Part shown: piece after piece, positions 10,895 to 35,892 of the stretch
How positions within the stretch are numbered: the stretch's first letter is position 1
How the letters are laid out: every line of letters starts with the position of its first letter
Virus record (IMG/VR): IMGVR_UViG_3300005821_000187
Direction: 5' to 3' (one strand)
Source of the DNA: an uncultured virus (IMG/VR IMGVR_UViG_3300005821_000187)
Taxonomy: Duplodnaviria > Heunggongvirae > Uroviricota > Caudoviricetes
Length of the DNA stretch: 64,000 nt
Position numbers and translations under genes: made by a program
The notes under the pieces: model-generated
Databases searched by the model: none
What the model saw: the letters and a program-made list of their open reading frames with translations, nothing else
What the model was told of the DNA's origin: nothing

Positions 10895-11349
10895 GCCTCG
10901 GCACTCTCAGGCGCGGGCTCGGCTTCGGGCTCGGCTTCGGGCTCGGGCTCTGGCTCAGTGTCGCGTCGCGCTTGCTCATAGCGGTCGAGCTTTTCGGATT
11001 GGCTATCCGTTGCGGGGCGGAGCTTCATGAACTTGACGCCTTCGGAGACCAGCAAGGCATCGATGCCATTCTCTTTGAGCCATTCCCCCAGCCGCTTGAT
11101 CGCGTCCATCGGAGTGCCCTTGCCCACTTCGACGATGTTCACTTCATCGAGCTTGCCCATGATGAACGCGCTACCCCCGTCGACCGGGAGCTTCTGGATC
11201 GCATCCGCATCGAAGTATTCGATCACTTCGTACCAATGCTCCGTGTCGCGCCGCACTTCATCGGGCGCTTCGTACTTGTGAATGCGGCTCCGTAGGCGCT
11301 CGTTCTCGCGCCTCAATCGGTCCCGATCCTTGCTCACTTCCGTTTTCAT
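10891..11349 (-). CDS. Hypothetical protein (152 aa) with a Glu/Pro C-terminal tail
   Basis: ATG 11349 overlaps the upstream stop (ATGA) and follows a GGGGG RBS. Confidence 0.55.
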   Translation of the reverse strand: MKTEVSKDRDRLRRENERLRSRIHKYEAPDEVRRDTEHWYEVIEYFDADAIQKLPVDGGSAFIMGKLDEVNIVEVGKGTPMDAIKRLGEWLKENGIDALLVSEGVKFMKLRPATDSQSEKLDRYEQARRDTEPEPEPEAEPEAEPAPESAEA

Positions 11350-14330
11350 GCTGCCCCCGCTTCGGCTTCGGGCGCCGCCACCGGCAGCGCGCTTAGATCC
11401 CATACCTGATCGAACTCGCTTTGTACGGATAGATCGTGGTCAATGACAACCACGGATGTTCGATCCAGGTCTCGGAGGATATCGCATACGATCGGCTTTT
11501 CGTCTTGCCCTAGGTGGGTCGTCAGCTCGTCCACGATGAGAGTATTGACCCGCACCCCGCAGCGATTGAACACCATCTCGCCTAGCGCGAATGGATTGAA
11601 CGCCAGCTCCACGCATCGGCGCTCTCCACCGCTGAGCTGTTCGTAACGGCGCTCGTGCACCTTCCCGCTTACCGGGTCGACGGCATAGAAGTGGATCTTT
11701 AGCTCTTCGCCCTTCATGAGCATTTTCGTGAAGATCCGGCCCTGTAAGAGCTGGCTCATGAACGTGTTGGCGTAGGTCTCTAGCTCGTGAAGCGCCGCGC
11801 GGAGCACAAGCACCGGGAGCCCCTTGGCCCCGAAGCCCCGCTCCCAGAACGAAAAATCGTTCCGCTTCTCATCGTACGAATCCATCTCGACCCGATCCGC
11901 CGCTTGCTTGCTCGTGAGCGTGGCCACCTTGGCTTCGCACTCGGCTTGCTTGGCCCCGAAGGGGTTCACTTCGCGCTCGCGTCGCGTGTACTCCGCGCGA
12001 GCCTCGTGCAGCCGCTTCTCCGCGTTCACCCGGTTAGTCTTGATCACGGTCAAGGTGTTGAGGGCTTCGGCGCACTTTTCGAGTGCTGCCCGGCTCTCTT
12101 TGATCTGCGCTTCGATGTGCGCGGCTTGCTGATCAACGCCCGTGTCTAGCTCGCCCATCTTGACGCTGAGATCGCTCATTTTCACATCGAACGTCTGAAT
12201 GGTCGCCGCGAAGCCGCGCACTTTGGCGTCCAGGGCGGCGGCGTGTTGCTCTTGGTGGGACGCATCGAAGGGCCGCTCGCAAGTCGGGCACACGCTCGTG
12301 CCCTTTTTCATCGCATCGTAGTGCCGATCTAGCTCTTGGCGCACAAGGGCTTCATCGCGCTCGACCATGGCCTTTTCGGCTTTGAGCGCGCCGAACTGTT
12401 GCTGTAGCTCCGCGGCCTTGTTCTGCGGCGACGATCGAACCAGCGACTTGGTGAGCGTGTCGACGTGCTCCGTATGGCTAGCCTTGCTTTCCAGCCATTG
12501 CTCTTCGCTCTTCAAGTGCCCATCGCACTGCGCCATTAGCTCTTTGGCGCCCTCGCCCTCTTTTTTCGCGGCCTCTAGGGCAATCTGACGTTGCTCTTCC
12601 CACTGCACGATCTGCGTCTTGTAGTCCGTTTCTTGGAGCACTTGGATCGCGCGCTCATCGGAGTGCATTTGCATCCGTAGTCGCTCCACGGAGCCCTCTA
12701 CGTCTTTGAGCCGGGCGCGTACATACGTTTGGGCAGCCGGGCATGCGTCCAGCCCGAACGCGGCGCTCAGAAGGTCTTTGCGGCGCTTGTCAGCGTCCGT
12801 GACAAAGTTGCCCACGGACCCTTGGCCCAAGTAGACGCACGTGCGCCAAAGGGCGTGATTGATCCCCAGCGTGGCGTGAATCAGCTCTTGCTGGTCGGCG
12901 ATGCCATCGGGGGCCTTGATCCCCGTGATCTTGGCCTTGCTCCCGGTGCCTCGCTTCTTAGTGCGCGTGACGACCACGGGCTGCTTCCGGCCCTGTAGCG
13001 CCACTTCGGCGACCACGGTGCAGTTAGTCGCCTCATCATGGACCACTTCATCGGCCCGAAGGCTCGCGCCATGGCTGCCCGCTTTGCGGGGCGTGGTCGT
13101 CCCAAAGAAGACCCATGTGAGCGCATCCATCATGGACGTTTTGCCGGCGCCCATCGGGCCTTTGATCAGCGTCACCCCCTCGGGGAAGTCGAAGGATCGC
13201 GTGCCCCGAACCCCGCAGAAGTCCGTAACGGTTACCCGCTTGATATCAACTTCTGGCGATAACGGTTGTACCGCTCGCGCGTCTGGGATCTCCGCCATGA
13301 TGGTCTGGCCAAGCTGGCGCAGCCGGAACTTGTCGAGATCGGTGCCATCGCAGTCTTCGACCCATTGGTGCATGGCCTCATCGAGCCCCATGGCGATCGA
13401 CGGGACGCTAACCGCTTCATCTTCCTCAGTCGCCAAGAGCGTGCGCACGTCGGCCGCTGGGATCGTTTCGATTACCTGAGCGAGCCTATCCGTGCCCATT
13501 ACATCGGCGGGTGCGTGCACTTCGACGATATCGTGCGGCGCGATCACGGCCGCGTCTTTCCAGCTCTTGCCGTAGACCAGCCGATGGTGCTTGGGCAGAT
13601 CATCGAAGTCGATAAAGTGGGGCTCGGCTCGGCCCTCTTCGATAAGCGCCACCCCGTGCGGCATGTCGCGCTCCCCGAAATTCTGTTCGAAGGGCGAGCC
13701 CAAGTACCACGTGTGCGCGCCTAGCTTCTGGCGCTTGTGGTAGTGCCCGCAGTAGCACGCACGCGTATCCGCCTCTACTTCGGCAATGCTCACGCGACCG
13801 GGCGAGATATGCGAGCCGTTGGTAGTCGCGCCTTGCACTTCGGCATGCGCAAAGACGGTCCAGGGAACGCCGCCCTCTAGCTGCGCAAAGAGCTTCGCTT
13901 GTTCGCCCGGCTCTTCGCGCCACGGCAAGAATGCGACCTTGCTATGGTGCCAAAGCAAGGGCTCAGTCGCGATCGTGATATTGGGGTACGCGCCAAACAT
14001 GCGCACGCCGTGGATCGTCCCGTCTTGGCTCACTTGATCGTGATTGCCCGGAATGATCACGAACTCGATACCCTTCCACTGGTCAAGCTCATCGAGTAGC
14101 GCGTCCATTTGCCGCACGTTCAAGACGCCGCGTTGATGCCAGAAGTCACCCGTACAGATCACCATCGCGTCATGCGTCTGCGCGAGCACCCGCACGCGCG
14201 CGAGCACGTCTAGGCTACGGTCGAGCGTCTTTTGCGACACGTGAAGATCGCCGAAGACTACCGCCTTCCACGGAGTGAGCTTCACGTCGTCAATCGGGCG
14301 TGCGGTTTTCTTGCGTTTTTTAGTCGTCAC
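11346..14330 (-). CDS. Fused Mre11/SbcD nuclease - Rad50/SbcC ATPase (994 aa)
   Basis: Phosphoesterase motifs GDLH, GDFW, GNHD, AHAE, GHYH; then Walker A GPMGAGKTS, Q-loop YLGQG, coiled coil with CPTC zinc hook, signature LSGGE, Walker B IVDE, and IDHD. Confidence 0.92.
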   Translation of the reverse strand: MTTKKRKKTARPIDDVKLTPWKAVVFGDLHVSQKTLDRSLDVLARVRVLAQTHDAMVICTGDFWHQRGVLNVRQMDALLDELDQWKGIEFVIIPGNHDQVSQDGTIHGVRMFGAYPNITIATEPLLWHHSKVAFLPWREEPGEQAKLFAQLEGGVPWTVFAHAEVQGATTNGSHISPGRVSIAEVEADTRACYCGHYHKRQKLGAHTWYLGSPFEQNFGERDMPHGVALIEEGRAEPHFIDFDDLPKHHRLVYGKSWKDAAVIAPHDIVEVHAPADVMGTDRLAQVIETIPAADVRTLLATEEDEAVSVPSIAMGLDEAMHQWVEDCDGTDLDKFRLRQLGQTIMAEIPDARAVQPLSPEVDIKRVTVTDFCGVRGTRSFDFPEGVTLIKGPMGAGKTSMMDALTWVFFGTTTPRKAGSHGASLRADEVVHDEATNCTVVAEVALQGRKQPVVVTRTKKRGTGSKAKITGIKAPDGIADQQELIHATLGINHALWRTCVYLGQGSVGNFVTDADKRRKDLLSAAFGLDACPAAQTYVRARLKDVEGSVERLRMQMHSDERAIQVLQETDYKTQIVQWEEQRQIALEAAKKEGEGAKELMAQCDGHLKSEEQWLESKASHTEHVDTLTKSLVRSSPQNKAAELQQQFGALKAEKAMVERDEALVRQELDRHYDAMKKGTSVCPTCERPFDASHQEQHAAALDAKVRGFAATIQTFDVKMSDLSVKMGELDTGVDQQAAHIEAQIKESRAALEKCAEALNTLTVIKTNRVNAEKRLHEARAEYTRREREVNPFGAKQAECEAKVATLTSKQAADRVEMDSYDEKRNDFSFWERGFGAKGLPVLVLRAALHELETYANTFMSQLLQGRIFTKMLMKGEELKIHFYAVDPVSGKVHERRYEQLSGGERRCVELAFNPFALGEMVFNRCGVRVNTLIVDELTTHLGQDEKPIVCDILRDLDRTSVVVIDHDLSVQSEFDQVWDLSALPVAAPEAEAGAA

Positions 14331-30189: not shown

Positions 30190-30228
30190 GTAGCGGCCTA
30201 GGTTCCCAAACCTAGGCCGTTGCTTTTT
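30190..30228 (+). terminator. Intrinsic terminator-like hairpin
   Basis: GTAGCGGCCTAGGTT-ccca-AACCTAGGCCGTTGC followed by TTTTT. Confidence 0.6.
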
Positions 30229-30608
30229 GTGGGTCGGGCTGTAGGGTCGTGTCGTCACGCGAGAACGAACCCCTGTTTTTGCACACCGTACCGCCCTGAG
30301 TCGCCGCGCATAGGCTCAGGGCGGTTCCTTTTTCTACCATAGGCCGTTGCTTTTTTGGGGGCACGCGGATAGTTTCGGGCTCCTTTTGCATGGGTCGCCT
30401 CTGGGCTGGTATGAGACAGCTCAGGGGCGGTTCTGAATTTCGCGACAAGAGCCTTGATTCACACCGCGCGCATCGCGTAGAACCAAGCGCATCGGTCATC
30501 GGGGCGGCAATGGTGTTGCAGCTCGCCCCACACCCACTTTGAACCAAGAGTAGTGCGGTCTGCCAGATTGCATGGGGGCGGGTTCGATGATCGGTCGCGC
30601 GGGCCTTA

Positions 30609-30632
30609 CGTCCCCTGGCCTACCAGGGGACG
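30609..30632. terminator. 10-bp hairpin just downstream of the 189-aa gene
   Basis: CGTCCCCTGG-ccta-CCAGGGGACG; no clear U-tract. Confidence 0.4.
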
Positions 30633-30641
30633 CCGGGCGTT

Positions 30642-31211
30642 CTACTGAGCGAGCTGGTCGGGCTCTTTGGGAAGCTCGACCCCGTTGCGCTCCGCGTTCT
30701 CCGTGAGCCGCACAACCGACTGCACGTGCCCCTTGGCTTGCGCCGCGCGCTGAGAGATCCGCCGGATCGTGAGATCCCCGTTTGCATAGTTGACCGACGC
30801 ATAGCCGGCCGTTTTCTTGCCGTGGCCTTGGGCGATGAACTTTTCGGGCGTGTTATGCACCGCTTCGCTAGTGCGCTTACGCGTGAAAAACGCGCCGCAG
30901 ATCGGCACCAACTCCGCGCCCGTCGCTTCTTTCAAAAAGTCGCGCACGAACTCCCATTTGATCGCGTCTTCGAAGACGCGGTGATCGGTAATCGGCAGCT
31001 CTGCGAAGAGCGCCAACTGTTCGGGCTCTTCGGGCGGCGGGGGGAGCATTTTGAGATCCCCCGCGTCACGCTCATCGGGCGGGATCAACTCACCCCGCAC
31101 CACGGTGCTCTTCTTGAAATAGCCGACCATCCGAAGCTCATAGAGGCAACGGGATACAATGTCTTGGTAGACCGGGGATAACCGGGCAGCCTCTTTGCGT
31201 ACGTATCCCAT
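30642..31211 (-). CDS. Hypothetical protein (189 aa)
   Basis: Coupled to the ParB-like gene by a TAATG overlap. Confidence 0.6.
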   Translation of the reverse strand: MGYVRKEAARLSPVYQDIVSRCLYELRMVGYFKKSTVVRGELIPPDERDAGDLKMLPPPPEEPEQLALFAELPITDHRVFEDAIKWEFVRDFLKEATGAELVPICGAFFTRKRTSEAVHNTPEKFIAQGHGKKTAGYASVNYANGDLTIRRISQRAAQAKGHVQSVVRLTENAERNGVELPKEPDQLAQ

Positions 31212-32251
31212 TAAGCCCTCGCTCGTGTGCGGGATGGAAGATGGACGACCTTGCTCGTGCGCTTCTTTTGCGCTGCCAAGAGTTGCTGACGTTCCTTGGC
31301 CGTGCGACCTTCGAGCTGTTTCAGCTCGTACTTGATCCGGTTCACCACGTCTTCGTCTTGTTTCAGCTCGATCGAGCTTACCGCTTCGCGAACCTGAGTG
31401 AGCTTTTCTTGGGACGCATCCCCATCGAGCATCCGCGCAATCGAGTTGGCCAACGCTTGCCCGAACGAAGCGAACAACGGCGTCGCGCGCTTGTCTTTGC
31501 CGGCGGAGCGGTAGGCGTGCACGTCGACACGGCCTCGAATCTCGCGCCCCGCAACCGTACCCTTACGCGCCTCTTTGAGTGTGGCCTTCGCGCCCTTGGC
31601 AACGTGGCGCTTCGCAGTCTCAATATCCTTCTTTGGGCGCTTGAAATCGCGGCCCGTCTTTTCGAGCTGCTTCATGTGCGCTCGTGCGCGCCCGCAGACT
31701 TCGCGACACGCGGTCACGTTCAAGCCGTCTAGGTCTTTGCGCTGTAAATAGCCGCCCCTGATCAACTCGCTCGCGTTGGCGCAACCTTCGGCCGTGTTGC
31801 TTAGGCGGTCGTCGCCGGGACGCGGTTGTGCACGGGTCCAGCCCAAAAGCCGCGCAATGTCTAGGTTTTTCACTTCGTGCGCTCCGACACGCGAAACTTC
31901 GTAGTCGCGAGCCGCTTCCCACGTCTCCAACATGGTGAGAAAATTGGCGTTGTAATCCTCTAGGTTCTCACGCCCCATGAACTGCAACATCTCTTCATCG
32001 TCGAGATCGCGCACGATGAGATCCACTTTCGGGAGCTTGCTGCGGCGGGCGGCTTCGAGCCGGTGGTGCCCGAACGCGATCTGGTAGCGGCGGCCGACCT
32101 TGCGGGCGATGATGCCTTGCCAAAGGCCCACGGCTGTGATCGACCGCTTCAATGCGGTGATCTTGTCAGGAACGAACGGATACTTCTTTAGGTGGCGATG
32201 CGGGTTCGAATCGATGAGATCGATCCGCGCAGACACAATCTGAGCGCGCAT
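31211..32251 (-). CDS. ParB/Srx N-terminal domain protein (346 aa)
   Basis: IDSNPHR...LKRSI...GLWQGIIAR...YQIAFGHHRLEAA...EN; AAGGAG RBS before ATG 32251. Confidence 0.8.
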   Translation of the reverse strand: MRAQIVSARIDLIDSNPHRHLKKYPFVPDKITALKRSITAVGLWQGIIARKVGRRYQIAFGHHRLEAARRSKLPKVDLIVRDLDDEEMLQFMGRENLEDYNANFLTMLETWEAARDYEVSRVGAHEVKNLDIARLLGWTRAQPRPGDDRLSNTAEGCANASELIRGGYLQRKDLDGLNVTACREVCGRARAHMKQLEKTGRDFKRPKKDIETAKRHVAKGAKATLKEARKGTVAGREIRGRVDVHAYRSAGKDKRATPLFASFGQALANSIARMLDGDASQEKLTQVREAVSSIELKQDEDVVNRIKYELKQLEGRTAKERQQLLAAQKKRTSKVVHLPSRTRARA

Positions 32252-32334
32252 GGGGGAACTCCTTTGGTTATGCAGGAAACCAGGATTCGACTTTTCCTGT
32301 TTTCTTGCGGGGGAGCCCCCTGGTATCAAAGTAG

Positions 32335-32993
32335 CGACTTGCTCGTCAAGCCCAAACCGATCTACAAGCTCCCGTGGTCATCCGAACGGACACGGAAGCA
32401 TCGCAGTGAACTCGAACCGGGGCAGCCGAAGAGCGGCCGTAATGCCCATACCAAACGGGGTCGGGGTGCAAGAGGGCGCGGGTTTATGACACGTGCCGTG
32501 ATAGCGCGATCGGATGGACACGTAGAGCCAGTGACAGACCAAAGGGCAGCCGCGCACTCCTAGCGGGCCGTCCTAGAACATTCGCGGGGGTGGGTCGTAG
32601 GCGGCTGTGTATCCCCCCAAGTCGTAACGACGCACGTTGGGTCATAGTTGGGTGGAGTTGGATTTTTGCAGCGAGGGCGCCTCGCGTGTGTGCGCACTTG
32701 CGTGCGTGACAAGAGGATCGAATCGCCGCTTCCACTAAGCGTTCCGATCCGATGGCATAGTTTGTCGAGTCATGGAGGGGGCAAGCGAAGCGCAGCTCCC
32801 GACCCACGGGGCGCAGCCCCCGGCGAGGCAAAGCGACTCCGGGCCGGAGGTTTCGGGAGGGGTGCGTGCTACGCTCCGGGCAACTCACGTGGCGCGGTCT
32901 TCTCCCTTCAAAGAAGCCCATCTATTCGGCGCCATGTGAGCCGGGACAAGTTGTAGGTGGGAAGCCCCTAGAGTGATCTGGGGGCTTTCCTTT
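32335..32993 (+). ncRNA. Candidate large structured non-coding RNA (~620 nt plus terminator), family unrecognised
   Basis: No convincing CDS; 5'/3' closing stem (32335-45 with 32942-53); many internal 6-13 bp stems whose G-U pairs favour the plus strand; ends at a terminator. Confidence 0.6.
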
Positions 32994-32994
32994 G
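32959..32994 (+). terminator. Intrinsic terminator
   Basis: 14-bp stem GGGAAGCCCCTAGA/TCTGGGGGCTTTCC with a GTGA (GNRA) loop, followed by TTT. Confidence 0.7.
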
Positions 32995-33007
32995 GTACGA
33001 TCCGGGC

Positions 33008-33094
33008 ATGAGGCATTTGAACCAGCTCGCATCGGCAGCAATCAGCATTTTGATCATCGTGATCCTCATCTTGCTCGTGCTCCGGCTGACATAA
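33008..33094 (+). CDS. Small hydrophobic membrane peptide (28 aa)
   Basis: MRHLNQLASAAISILIIVILILLVLRLT*; TACGAT -10-like box 6 nt before the ATG; below the ORF-track cutoff. Confidence 0.6.
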   Translation: MRHLNQLASAAISILIIVILILLVLRLT

Positions 33095-33167
33095 CGCCGG
33101 TTCCGTTTTGCAAAACGTAGGGGGTTCCGTTTTGCGCGCATTGCCTGTAAATCGCAGGGCGCCGTGT

Positions 33168-33201
33168 TTGCATCGTATACGGCGCATGCTATACTTGGCG
33201 T
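33168..33201 (+). promoter_or_regulatory. Promoter with CGTATACG box, probably leaderless transcript
   Basis: TTGCAT-16 nt-TATACT with TG extension, 6 nt before ATG 33202. Confidence 0.65.
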
Positions 33202-33789
33202 ATGCGCAACAAACTCGTAAACGAAACGAAGTACCAAGGTCGGGTACTGCGGCGCGCGATCACGCTGGGTCACAAGTGCGCCAAAGAGCACGTGCCGCTT
33301 TCCACGTCGGGCTACACCGTCCGGTTCATTACCAAGCCGCGTATCCGTGCGGTTCGGATCTGGGCCAAGGGCCTCACGATCACCATCCAACTGCCCATGA
33401 ACGACGCCTCGATGGCCCAAGCGGCCGGCGCGGTCGCGTACGGGATGGTCAAGTGCGCCAGTCCCACCGTGACGCGAGCGAGCCTTCACCGGGTCTACGC
33501 GGACGTGCCCGGCGTCGGCTACGAAGCACTGCCTCACAAGCCGAAGCGCAAGCGCGGCAAGCCCACGCTCGATAAGAAGTACGACGCGCTCCGCAAGGCC
33601 GTGGTAGAGAACGAAAAGCGGGTCAAAGAGTTGGAGCGGCAACTCAAGCGGAGCACGACCCTATTGAAGCAAAAGCGGCAAAAGCTCGCGCGCATGGCCA
33701 AGGCATTTGAAGGCGCGATGGATTCGACTGAGAACCTGAGCGATAACCAGTTGGCCGTGCGGCTCCGCCTGAGCCGTGAAGCGTCCTAG
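33202..33789 (+). CDS. Basic hypothetical protein with a C-terminal coiled coil (195 aa)
   Basis: Clear promoter; GC-rich third codon positions; Lys/Arg-rich. Confidence 0.7.
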   Translation: MRNKLVNETKYQGRVLRRAITLGHKCAKEHVPLSTSGYTVRFITKPRIRAVRIWAKGLTITIQLPMNDASMAQAAGAVAYGMVKCASPTVTRASLHRVYADVPGVGYEALPHKPKRKRGKPTLDKKYDALRKAVVENEKRVKELERQLKRSTTLLKQKRQKLARMAKAFEGAMDSTENLSDNQLAVRLRLSREAS

Positions 33790-33797
33790 GCGCCCCC

Positions 33798-34097
33798 ATG
33801 AGCAAGCCCCCTCGATACCATTCCCTGCTTGGCTTTGTGCCGGGTTCCGACGATGAAGCGGCTGCGCGACTCGCCGACGCGCTCCCCGAAGATCCCCTTG
33901 CCGTCCGTGCCGTGCGCCGGATCTGCCCGGAGTGCGATGGGCTCGATGGCTACCATTCCGAAGAGTGCCCGAAGCGGGTGCATCTCCCGCCCCCGCAGAG
34001 CAACGGCAAGCACGAGCCGAAGCGCACGCTCCCTGAGCCGCGCAAGCTCGTGAGCCGGCTTCTCCGTGAACTCGCCGACCGTATCGAACGCGGCTGA
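33798..34097 (+). CDS. Hypothetical protein with a possible Zn site (99 aa)
   Basis: CPEC...YHSEECP; starts 8 nt after the 195-aa gene. Confidence 0.6.
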   Translation: MSKPPRYHSLLGFVPGSDDEAAARLADALPEDPLAVRAVRRICPECDGLDGYHSEECPKRVHLPPPQSNGKHEPKRTLPEPRKLVSRLLRELADRIERG

Positions 34098-34478: not shown

Positions 34479-34940
34479 CTAGCGAGTCGCGTTGATCGCG
34501 TAGGCGCTCACGCCGATCACGAGCACGCCTGAGACTATGCCTAGAGCGAACCACAAGGCCCGCGAGCGCCCTGGCTTGTTCAGGGCTTCCTCGGCTTCCC
34601 GCTGGCCCTTCACGGCCCTGTGAAGGGCTCCTACGGCCTTCTCCGACTCTAGGGCGGCGAGAGAGACCTGGCGCTCTAGCAAGAGCGTGAGCTGCCCGTG
34701 CATGACCGTGCGCACTTCGTAGTCCACGATCTGAGCCCGGAGCACATCGATGGTTTGGAGCTGGACCAGCATGCACTTGGCCACGCGGGCATCGAACCAG
34801 ATCCCCGGCTTGCCTTGGTGGGTCATTTGAACCCGGCGCAACTGCACTTCGGGCGCGCAAAGCTCGATAGGCTGCACGGGCTCCGCCGCTTCTGCCGGCG
34901 AAGCCATGAGCCATATCGCGATCAGAATCGCGGCCTTCAC
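34479..34940 (-). CDS. Membrane protein with signal peptide, coiled coil and C-terminal TM helix (spanin-like, 153 aa)
   Basis: MKAAILIAIWLMASPAEA signal; ALWFALGIVSGVLVIGVSAYAI TM segment. Confidence 0.6.
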   Translation of the reverse strand: MKAAILIAIWLMASPAEAAEPVQPIELCAPEVQLRRVQMTHQGKPGIWFDARVAKCMLVQLQTIDVLRAQIVDYEVRTVMHGQLTLLLERQVSLAALESEKAVGALHRAVKGQREAEEALNKPGRSRALWFALGIVSGVLVIGVSAYAINATR

Positions 34941-35032
34941 GCGAAGACTAGATACAGGGCGATGATCACGGCCACCCCGATGGCGGCGAGTACGGCGATT
35001 TTCTTGGTGTTCACTTTGTCGAGCTTGCTCAT
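34937..35032 (-). CDS. Small single-TM peptide (31 aa)
   Basis: MSKLDKVNTKKIAVLAAIGVAVIIALYLVFA*; GAGGGGG RBS; GTGA overlap with the next gene; not in the ORF track. Confidence 0.7.
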   Translation of the reverse strand: MSKLDKVNTKKIAVLAAIGVAVIIALYLVFA

Positions 35033-35041
35033 GGTTCCCCC

Positions 35042-35395
35042 TCAGTATCCGAGCCGAGCGAACGCGTCGGCCACTTGGTTATCATCGAGCCCTTCGGCCC
35101 CCTCGTGCAAGCCGACGATGGTCCGCTTGCGCTCATCGATGCGTAGGTCGATCGCGTCCAGATCCCCTTGGAGCGTGGTGCCCATTTGCGCGAGCATCTT
35201 GCGCTCCGTTTGCAGGGCCACGATCTCTTTTTGGGCCTTCTCGACCGCCAAGAGATCCTTCACGCTACCAAGGCGTCGTTTGTGATACGTGTACGCGAGC
35301 CCCGCGCCGAACACGAGCACGAGCCCGGCAAGCGCGACTTGCGTGTTCTTGCTGATCCACCGCCCGGCTTTGATGAGCCACAACGGCCAAGTCAT
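35042..35395 (-). CDS. N-terminal TM plus coiled-coil protein (i-spanin-like, 117 aa)
   Basis: VALAGLVLVFGAGLAYTY TM segment, then a heptad-like helix. Confidence 0.55.
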   Translation of the reverse strand: MTWPLWLIKAGRWISKNTQVALAGLVLVFGAGLAYTYHKRRLGSVKDLLAVEKAQKEIVALQTERKMLAQMGTTLQGDLDAIDLRIDERKRTIVGLHEGAEGLDDNQVADAFARLGY

Positions 35396-35892
35396 TCAGT
35401 GTCCTTGTCGTCTAGGTTCTTGAGCACCGTCGCCACCGAAGGCACCTTTGGGGGACGGGGCACTTGGAGCGACGGGCTCTTGCTTTGGCCGGGTAGCGCG
35501 GGCAGCTCGATATCCTTGCGCTTCAAAAGCCCTTTGGCGGTTTGGTACAGGAACACGCTGATCGCTCCGGCGCCCGCGAAGTAGAGCGCGCTTTGGCCGT
35601 GGGTCATGCCGGGCTCCGCCGTGACAAAGAAGCCGAGCACGGCCCCGGTGGCGACCGGGTGCAGCGGCATGGTCTTGTAGGCCCACCACCAAAACGACTT
35701 GGCCTTGCGCTTCACGCGCGGCGCACCGGGCAAGTGGCTGACTTCGTACGGAAGCTCATCGACGTACACGGCGTACGCACGCGGGCGCGTGAACACGCTC
35801 CGCTTCATGACTTGGCCGATCACCATGAACACAAGGGCCGCTACGAGAAAGGGCCAGTGCGGTTCAATCGCGCTCTGCCACCATTCGATCAT
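35392..35892 (-). CDS. Putative holin (three hydrophobic segments, 166 aa)
   Basis: Three TM-like stretches, charged C-terminus, position after the tail genes. Confidence 0.5.
   Translation of the reverse strand: MIEWWQSAIEPHWPFLVAALVFMVIGQVMKRSVFTRPRAYAVYVDELPYEVSHLPGAPRVKRKAKSFWWWAYKTMPLHPVATGAVLGFFVTAEPGMTHGQSALYFAGAGAISVFLYQTAKGLLKRKDIELPALPGQSKSPSLQVPRPPKVPSVATVLKNLDDKDTE

Follow-up and report, generated by a model that had tools for sequence, protein, structure and literature searches.

Large RNAs that fold intricately and have no known function are, to our knowledge, rare, and those studied so far have shown unusual biochemistry. Two of them, ROOL and GOLLD, are often found near tRNAs. 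ROOL, GOLLD and OLE are reported to form RNA-only multimers (PMC12286853). In this study, we analyzed a stretch of 64,000 nucleotides (the window) from an uncultured virus of the Caudoviricetes (IMG/VR record IMGVR_UViG_3300005821_000187), and we focus on positions 32338-32995 of its plus strand, which run from the first base conserved among relatives to the U-run behind a terminator-like hairpin. We propose that these positions are the gene for a folded, multi-domain, stand-alone non-coding RNA of ~655 nt that lies outside the catalogued families, a reading to which we assign a probability of roughly 55%. The narrower proposition, that the plus strand here carries a conserved structured RNA element, we hold with considerable confidence, and we consider the odds even that the element is a functional RNA in its own right rather than only a leader. 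In kind, the RNA is closest to ROOL and GOLLD.

The sequence-only reading of this DNA had suggested that the phage makes a large, structured and so far undescribed RNA, complete with a terminator, and this suggestion is supported by the absence of an Rfam match, by a consensus fold and by covariation. Searching the 64-kb window with the Rfam 15 covariance models at gathering thresholds returned 0 matches. When positions 32150-33250 were compared with 4227 Rfam models under permissive filters (E <= 10), the only match was to mir-668, at 22.5 bits against a gathering threshold of 87 (E 0.31), as expected by chance. The RNA is not a member of the ROOL, GOLLD, OLE, HEARO, group I or II intron, RNase P, tmRNA, 6S or known ribozyme families. 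Among the texts open to a full-text search of the literature, no description of such an RNA was found.

The comparative evidence comes from three distinct versions of the element, of which two are close to one another. The nearest virus record, G001 (101 kb), is ~87-88.5% identical to the window across the stretch (88.5% over 653 columns). The third version lies on a 108-kb contig, L007, and is 64.9% identical over 609 columns (68.5% by blastn); it was found by using the protein of a nearby 195-aa open reading frame (ORF) as a search handle (9 related protein clusters), the L007 protein being 63% identical to that of the window. Two further contigs repeat the L007 version, one identically (L010) and one except for a single base outside the element (L011), and another (L006) is the window's version with one base changed (32754 G>T). 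Sequence likeness sets in exactly at 32338, both for G001 and for contigs from two more sediment runs (X17 and X18). Thus the element is kept in two other uncultured marine-sediment phage lineages, with runs of 18-23 nt that are invariant across all three phages and with insertions and deletions that fall in hairpin tips and junctions, while four-fold sites of a neighboring gene differ at 52% in L007. Scans of viral contigs for further homologues returned only G001 and two records with the L007 version; a metagenome scan returned L006, L007 and two short unrelated contigs only; and scans of genome contigs gave no match. GenBank phages gave no match either, by blastn with the RNA or by tblastn with the 195-aa protein, to which six further protein clusters are related. 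The stretch's DNA is present in marine-sediment metagenomes of 8 studies.

The genes of this phage are otherwise densely packed, and the gene-poor stretch that had been pointed out from the sequence was borne out: no convincing gene occupies the ~750 nt from 32252 to 33007, between a ParB-like gene and the next real ORF. None of the six ORFs inside the stretch matches Pfam at E <= 0.1, and none is kept in the relatives, as no stop-free frame is shared by the window, G001 and L007. Mismatches are spread evenly over codon positions, both against G001 (21/24/30, p 0.43) and against L007 (75/70/69, p 0.87), and the indels break the frame, measuring 1, 1, 4, 1, 2, 3 and 1 nt in the comparison with G001 and having many different lengths in that with L007. 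As a coding control, the adjacent 195-aa gene shows the opposite pattern, with mismatches of 14/12/29 (p 0.009; G001) and 48/48/95 (p 1e-5; L007) and indels of 3 nt only. The stretch 32338-32995 is non-coding.

A signal of folding emerges only through comparison with the relatives. We computed a consensus fold with RNAalifold on a plain MAFFT alignment of the three sequences (701 columns) and compared it with column shuffles made within classes of equal gap pattern and conservation. On the plus strand the consensus reached -196.7 kcal/mol against -152.2 +- 7.6 for the shuffles (z -5.8, 0 of 137 as good), whereas the adjacent coding region of the same three genomes, at identities of 90, 68 and 68%, gave a z of -0.03 (34 of 73); the consensus-fold test is therefore not biased for this genome. 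The consensus comprises 179 pairs, 26 of which are changed on both sides yet still paired, compared with 16.2 +- 3.5 in shuffles that were themselves refolded (1 of 158 reaches 26). Pairs with a non-standard cell number 33 against 51.6 +- 7.1, with no shuffle of the 158 lower. On the consensus, 95.5% of 528 cells are paired, and the 26 double-changed pairs exceed both simple shuffles (9.7 +- 2.3; 0 of 500) and slid partners (1-5), controls that are lenient toward a structure inferred from the very sequences being scored. A review cautions that, unless properly controlled, measurements of covariation may give a false picture of RNA structure conservation (PMC11234323). In our data the compensatory changes stand above nulls that allow for selection of the fold, and base pairs are kept through compensatory changes beyond chance, as judged from three sequences.

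These changes are concentrated in a few helices. In the long-range helix 32378-88/32507-17, 9 of 10 pairs are rewritten in L007; in the hairpin 32543-55/32563-74, 6 of 11 pairs are rewritten and the three phages carry three different versions; and 3 compensatory pairs fall in the hairpin at 32761-76. In a partial model, which covers 19 helices and 130 pairs, pairing holds in 383 of 390 cells, with 31 compensatory, 19 one-sided and 76 invariant pairs and 6 that hold a broken cell, where slid controls give 0-6 compensatory pairs. This model was fitted by hand, shifting L007 by one or two columns by column number, and it is a description rather than a test; the hairpins read with shifted columns fold alike in each sequence on its own. 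The plus strand is indicated by 42 G-U cells against 1 A-C cell in the partial model, by a consensus that is more stable on this strand than on the other (-196.7 vs -160.7), and by the arrangement of hairpin and then U's that marks a terminator, found only on the plus strand.

The consensus of the three sequences is organized around a 5' "spine" (32361-32388, plus strand), which pairs in turn with 32951-57 (P1, 7 bp), 32804-14 (P1b, 10 bp) and 32507-17 (PLR, 10-11 bp) and thereby defines three nested domains. P1, formed by UCUACAA at 32361-67 and UUGUAGG at 32951-57, is invariant; in P1b we counted 3 one-sided changes and a single broken cell; and PLR is the helix in which 9 of 10 pairs are changed on both sides in L007 with pairing intact. 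Domain I (32389-32506) contains two compound hairpins, P2 and P3, between 32411 and 32497, and each sequence folds in this way alone. P2 is built from CUCG/CGGG, GGGCA/UGCCC and GCCG/CGGC, the last of which becomes GCUC/GAGC in L007; its third segment, P2c, has 2 compensatory pairs, and P2b and P2c appear once the L007 row of the MAFFT alignment is moved by one column. P3 (32475-84/32488-97) shows 3 one-sided changes.

The central domain (32528-32651) is a three-hairpin junction closed by helices 32528-32/32647-51 and 32537-39/32641-43. It holds H4 (32543-55/32563-74), H5 (32586-90/32613-17 and 32594-97/32602-05, with an invariant UAGG loop and 5 compensatory pairs) and H6 (32621-24/32628-31, with 3 compensatory pairs); the outer part of H5 and H6 were read with row-specific shifts. 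The H4 loop (32556-32562) carries CCUA (UCUA in L007), the complement of the invariant UAGG loop at 32598-32601, and a kissing-loop contact between the H4 loop and the hairpin at 32594-32605 is a possible candidate. The most conserved block follows at 32671-32750, with hairpins 32671-76/32680-85, around 32689-32706, and a long one at 32715-31/32737-50, in which we observed one compensatory pair (G-C to A-U) and a few G-U changes. The 3' domain (32761-32957), as tentatively drawn, contains hairpins 32761-65/32772-76, 32777-82/32795-800 and 32844-48/32853-57, the stem 32884-95/32929-40 and the 3' strand of P1; L007 lacks ~40 nt of it, among them the greater part of the 12-bp stem.

Comparison with the relatives dealt unevenly with the seven stems that had been listed from the sequence by hand, of which three survive, three do not and one, the closing helix, is replaced. 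The stem drawn at 32373-85/32510-22 is kept as PLR, and 32715-20/32745-50 is kept and invariant. The 12-bp stem 32884-95/32929-40 holds in the window and G001, with one compensatory and one G-U change, and is shortened to weak wobble pairs in L007. The helix 32335-45/32942-53, which had been thought to close the whole region, does form in the minimum free energy (MFE) structure of the window, but its 3' arm is deleted in L007 and P1 is kept instead. The stems GTGAACTCG/CGGGTTTAT, 32546-53/32601-08 and 32796-802/32853-59 are not in the consensus fold, and their bases belong to better supported hairpins.

At its 3' end the element is bounded by a hairpin that resembles an intrinsic terminator (32959-32995, plus strand), with a 14-bp stem (32959-72/32977-90), a GUGA loop and a short U-run. 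The GNRA-type hairpin had been recognized from the window alone, and it beats shuffled sequences in all three phages (z -3.96, -4.20 and -2.52). All 14 pairs are kept in the three sequences, with 1 compensatory and 5 one-sided changes, and the stem is followed by UUU in the window, UCUUUGUU in G001 and UUUAUUU in L007. A simple terminator scan did not call the hairpin in the window because the U-run is short. At the 5' end, the TGgTATCAA box described earlier is present at 32322-32330 (plus strand) as a putative extended -10 box read from the sequence, from which a start at ~32337-32341 would follow. In the window, G001 and L007, TAYC stands exactly 10 nt before a conserved CTTGC, and the same spacing recurs in the loose end of the X18 contig. 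That this distance is fixed in the three phages while the intervening 10 nt differ fits a putative -10 box and start site. No run on record as RNA holds the stretch. Two runs are labelled metatranscriptomic and flagged as probably DNA; their contigs cover the 3' half of the RNA and the flanking genes alike and are uninformative.

Several observations weigh against a stand-alone folded RNA, and the most direct concern the fold. The window alone does not fold better than dinucleotide shuffles, neither on the plus strand (MFE -283.5 vs -275.1 +- 7.7 kcal/mol, z -1.09, 3 of 20 shuffles as good) nor on the minus strand (z -1.01), and the stems found by hand are therefore not in themselves above chance; the expectation that folding would exceed shuffled controls thus failed for the single sequence and held for the alignment. 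In the alignment, the minus strand scores nearly as well as the plus strand (-160.7 vs -127.2 +- 6.2, z -5.4, 0 of 70). When a fold was derived from the window and G001 only and then tried on L007 in its MAFFT placement, 34 of 85 changed pairs were kept, compared with 33.0 +- 4.2 in shuffles (2255 of 5000 reach this number), so the covariation signal depends on all three sequences choosing the fold. Of that two-sequence fold (198 pairs), 120 of 171 pairs (70%) do form in L007, where slid partners give 33-48%, an excess owed mostly to invariant columns; the fold is wrong in places, missing the hairpin at 32543-74, and MAFFT misplaces L007 in several hairpins. Part of the 19-helix model requires L007 to be shifted by hand. 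Most of the double changes lie on one long branch, two of the three distinct sequences are close, and no phylogeny-aware test such as R-scape was possible with only three. The G- and C-runs at 32777-32821 (plus strand) admit two exclusive pairings that fit all three sequences, GGGGGC with GCUCCC or with GCCCCC; the indels of L007 sit in the tips of the first, and the alternatives could constitute a conformational switch. As for the ends of the transcript, the consensus scan called no sigma-70 promoter at 32322-32330, the window's U-run amounts to only 3 U, and a mere 17 nt separate the terminator stem from the start of an ORF, too little for the ORF to have its own promoter, an arrangement that fits a leader too.

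That ORF (33008-33094, plus strand) encodes a hydrophobic peptide of 28 aa with one predicted membrane helix and charged ends. The window's peptide shares 26 of 28 residues with that of G001 and 25 of 28 with that of L007, and third codon positions account for 8 of 12 and 6 of 12 differences, respectively, a pattern from which we conclude that the peptide is under purifying selection. The ORF has no obvious Shine-Dalgarno sequence, the peptide belongs to no Pfam family, and the spacer behind it is not conserved. A perfect 13-nt direct repeat, GGTTCCGTTTTGC, occurs in this spacer twice, 24 nt apart (33099-33135, plus strand), and is confined to the window's version. Expression of the peptide probably depends on read-through of the RNA's terminator, the two being, we infer, co-transcribed, and the product may serve as a small toxin, in lysis or exclusion, or as the RNA's partner.

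The peptide is central to the main rival of our proposal, in which the whole structure is a giant cis-acting leader, or a dual-function RNA, of the 28-aa ORF. In this case, the fold and terminator would act as an attenuator or translational lock that times synthesis of the peptide and perhaps of the genes behind it, in the manner of the long folded mRNAs of type I toxins or of a structured regulatory RNA that doubles as the message for a small membrane-active peptide; such a case would be RNAIII of S. aureus, which reportedly encodes delta-haemolysin. The absence of room for a promoter in the 17 nt past the terminator stem, the constant company of RNA and selected peptide, and the weak U-runs of the window and G001 all lend support to this idea, as does an invariant GUUGUAGG ahead of the terminator that can pair with 32361-67 or with an invariant UACGAU before the start codon, a possible switch. 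The element, however, is 650 nt long, with ~19 helices, three long-range closures nested in one another and stretches of 18-23 nt without variation, and we know of no leader that approaches such a size and fold. We found nothing that would pair in competition with the stem of the terminator, nor did we see an antisense partner or promoter (antisense promoters were not looked for systematically), and the good U-run of L007 argues for real termination. We therefore regard a leader as a possible explanation, though not the one that we favor. A different alternative, which we consider improbable, is that the conserved unit is a DNA-level element, such as a replication origin, partition site or packaging site between the replication and lysis modules, whose inverted repeats act in DNA or are bound by the neighboring ParB-like protein. 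It is true that the stretch heads the replication operon and adjoins the ParB-like gene in the window and G001, and that the minus-strand alignment z (-5.4) is similar to that of the plus strand, as expected of DNA rich in inverted repeats. Yet the element contains no iterons, direct-repeat arrays or AT-rich stretch, GATC is no more frequent in it than in the genome at large (5 in 658 nt vs 8 per kb), and long-range helices span up to 590 nt; the ratio of 42 G-U cells to 1 A-C cell fits an RNA made from one strand, not duplex DNA. Moreover, L007 has the element without the ParB-like gene and its two neighboring ORFs, the synteny with the window ending near 30240 and resuming in the element. 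Therefore the element goes with the peptide, 195-aa and 99-aa genes and not with ParB, and the association with the ParB-like gene noted in the sequence-only reading is not upheld. An iteron-type or ParB/parS-type site is not supported, as no repeat arrays are present and the ParB-like gene is missing in L007, and GATC clustering as a sign of an origin was rejected since the excess is genome-wide.

The remaining alternatives deny the stretch a function as RNA altogether. It might be a spacer that is neutral or in decay; the phages would then resemble each other here through recent common descent and mosaic exchange, and the apparent fold would follow from G+C-rich sequence. The single-sequence z of -1.1 and the null result when L007 was left out of fold derivation would agree with this, and so would the mosaic nature of the genomes, in which four-fold differences among neighboring genes range from 0.12 to 0.53, a local divergence too uneven to set a neutral rate for the RNA block. 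A neutral spacer would nevertheless have to account for hairpins that are rewritten on both strands and yet adjoin stretches of 18-23 nt without any change, all within one 650-nt block at 65% identity, for a consensus-fold z of -5.8 where the coding control gives 0.0, for a compensatory excess that holds over refolded shuffles, and for indels placed in hairpin tips and junctions, and we judge the lack of any function to be quite improbable. An unrecognized protein-coding gene or recent pseudogene is scarcely credible. The window does contain stop-free frames of 102 aa (plus strand) and 145 aa (minus strand), but these are split over different frames in G001 and absent in L007, and the stretch lacks codon periodicity in its substitutions, indels in multiples of 3 and any Pfam family among its ORFs.

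Our preference for a stand-alone RNA rests on the size of the element, its nested long-range closure, its long invariant single-stranded stretches and the better-formed terminator-like end of L007. In the mechanism that we propose, transcription would proceed rightward from a promoter with its -10 box at 32322-30 and begin near 32338. The 5' strand at 32361-88 would then pair with three distant segments, closing the RNA into three nested domains with ~19 helices, and the long invariant loops and junctions may serve tertiary contacts or a protein partner. The RNA would act as a folded molecule itself during infection, as a scaffold, ribonucleoprotein or catalyst, as has been proposed for other large ornate phage-borne RNAs, and leakage through the weak U-run would supply the message for the downstream 28-aa membrane peptide. 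A more ambitious interpretation, which we regard as unlikely at present, is that the RNA represents the first example of an undescribed class of large multi-domain phage RNA machines; it would be a ribozyme, or would assemble into particles as ROOL and GOLLD do, and would be genetically coupled to a tiny membrane peptide. If true, the RNA and the peptide would make up a new type of phage module, one that works at the membrane of the host or counters its defence.

The genes around the RNA are arranged as two minus-strand modules separated by a short plus-strand island. To the left lies a replication module with a DNA polymerase, a primase, DnaB-like and SF2 helicases and the ParB-like (ParB-N-domain) protein, the gene for which occupies 31211-32251 (minus strand, start codon 32249-32251); to the right, the minus strand also carries genes for the baseplate and other parts of the virion, together with a series of small ORFs for membrane proteins. 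The island consists of the gene-free stretch, the 28-aa ORF, the 195-aa ORF (33202-33789, plus strand) with its own promoter, and a 99-aa ORF (33798-34097, plus strand), and the two longer ORFs travel with the RNA. Neither of these matches a PHROGs or Pfam family at threshold, and an AlphaFold model of the 195-aa protein (pLDDT 72) has no match in the PDB at E <= 0.001. The consensus scan called the 195-aa gene's promoter as sigma-70 type, TTTGCA-17-TATACT at 33167-33195 (plus strand). It differs by 1 change across three phages whose coding sequence differs by 33%, and a GTATAC palindrome within its spacer gives it the look of a promoter with an operator. The phage's DNA polymerase is at most 28% identical to that of any GenBank phage.

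The ParB-like gene and two small ORFs (30212-32337) behave as a swappable block, which is absent in L007 and 33-50% identical in G001, where the ParB-like protein itself is only 50% identical to the window's; the right-hand junction of the block is 32338 in G001 and in contigs of two other runs. A ParB relative (L003, 46% identity in ParB) has no similar stretch at this locus. Elsewhere in the window, a single ORF of 994 aa (11346-14330, minus strand) matches SbcD-like (residues 22-306) and SbcC-like (361-976) phage families and appears to encode a fused SbcCD nuclease. Small ORFs of 153, 31, 117 and 166 aa at 34479-35892 (minus strand) have starts that resemble signal peptides or membrane helices and the look of a lysis cassette, and none matches a PHROG or Pfam family. 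Over the window as a whole we counted 513 GATC sites, where dinucleotide shuffles predict 332 +- 16, a genome-wide excess that is unusual for a phage that would meet GATC-cutting enzymes.

How the element compares with described systems depends on which of its parts is considered. Its end resembles Rho-independent terminators in having a G+C-rich 14-bp hairpin followed by U's and kept with a compensatory change, but the U-run is short in 2 of 3 phages and a conserved ORF follows within 17 nt, and it may therefore act only partly. Type I toxin mRNAs and dual-function RNAs are represented by hok, tisB and zorO and by RNAIII/hld. The phage RNA is like these in that a structured RNA is joined to a very small hydrophobic peptide ORF; 28 aa is within their size range, and the ORF at 33008-33094 is of the small hydrophobic kind by which type I toxin-antitoxin systems are recognized. 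Unlike in the type I systems, its fold lies upstream of a terminator and not around the ribosome site of the ORF, the RNA is several times longer than those leaders, and no antisense RNA was found, although promoters were not searched for systematically. With OLE, the HEARO/IscB omega-RNA and raiA it shares great length, a high degree of structure, conserved junctions and discovery by comparative analysis, yet it matches none of them in Rfam, no IscB-, TnpB-type or OLE-associated gene was noticed among its annotated neighbors, and its carrier is a phage.

The differences from ROOL and GOLLD are those of a separate family: there is no match in sequence or structure and the fold differs; ARAGORN found 0 tRNA genes over the 64-kb window, such that the RNA has none nearby, and no tRNA-like parts were found in it; and it directly precedes a conserved membrane-peptide ORF. 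What it has in common with them is a length of hundreds of nt, many helices, long-range closure, carriage by a phage, a stand-alone unit that would extend from a putative promoter to a terminator-like hairpin, and a function that is not known. What is new is a family in sequence and structure from uncultured marine-sediment phages, with clear unit boundaries, a nesting of three domains and a fixed partnership with the gene of a 28-aa peptide. The RNA adds to the growing indication that phages carry many RNAs of this kind, and the surprise lies not in the existence of such an RNA but in the family itself and in its link to the peptide.

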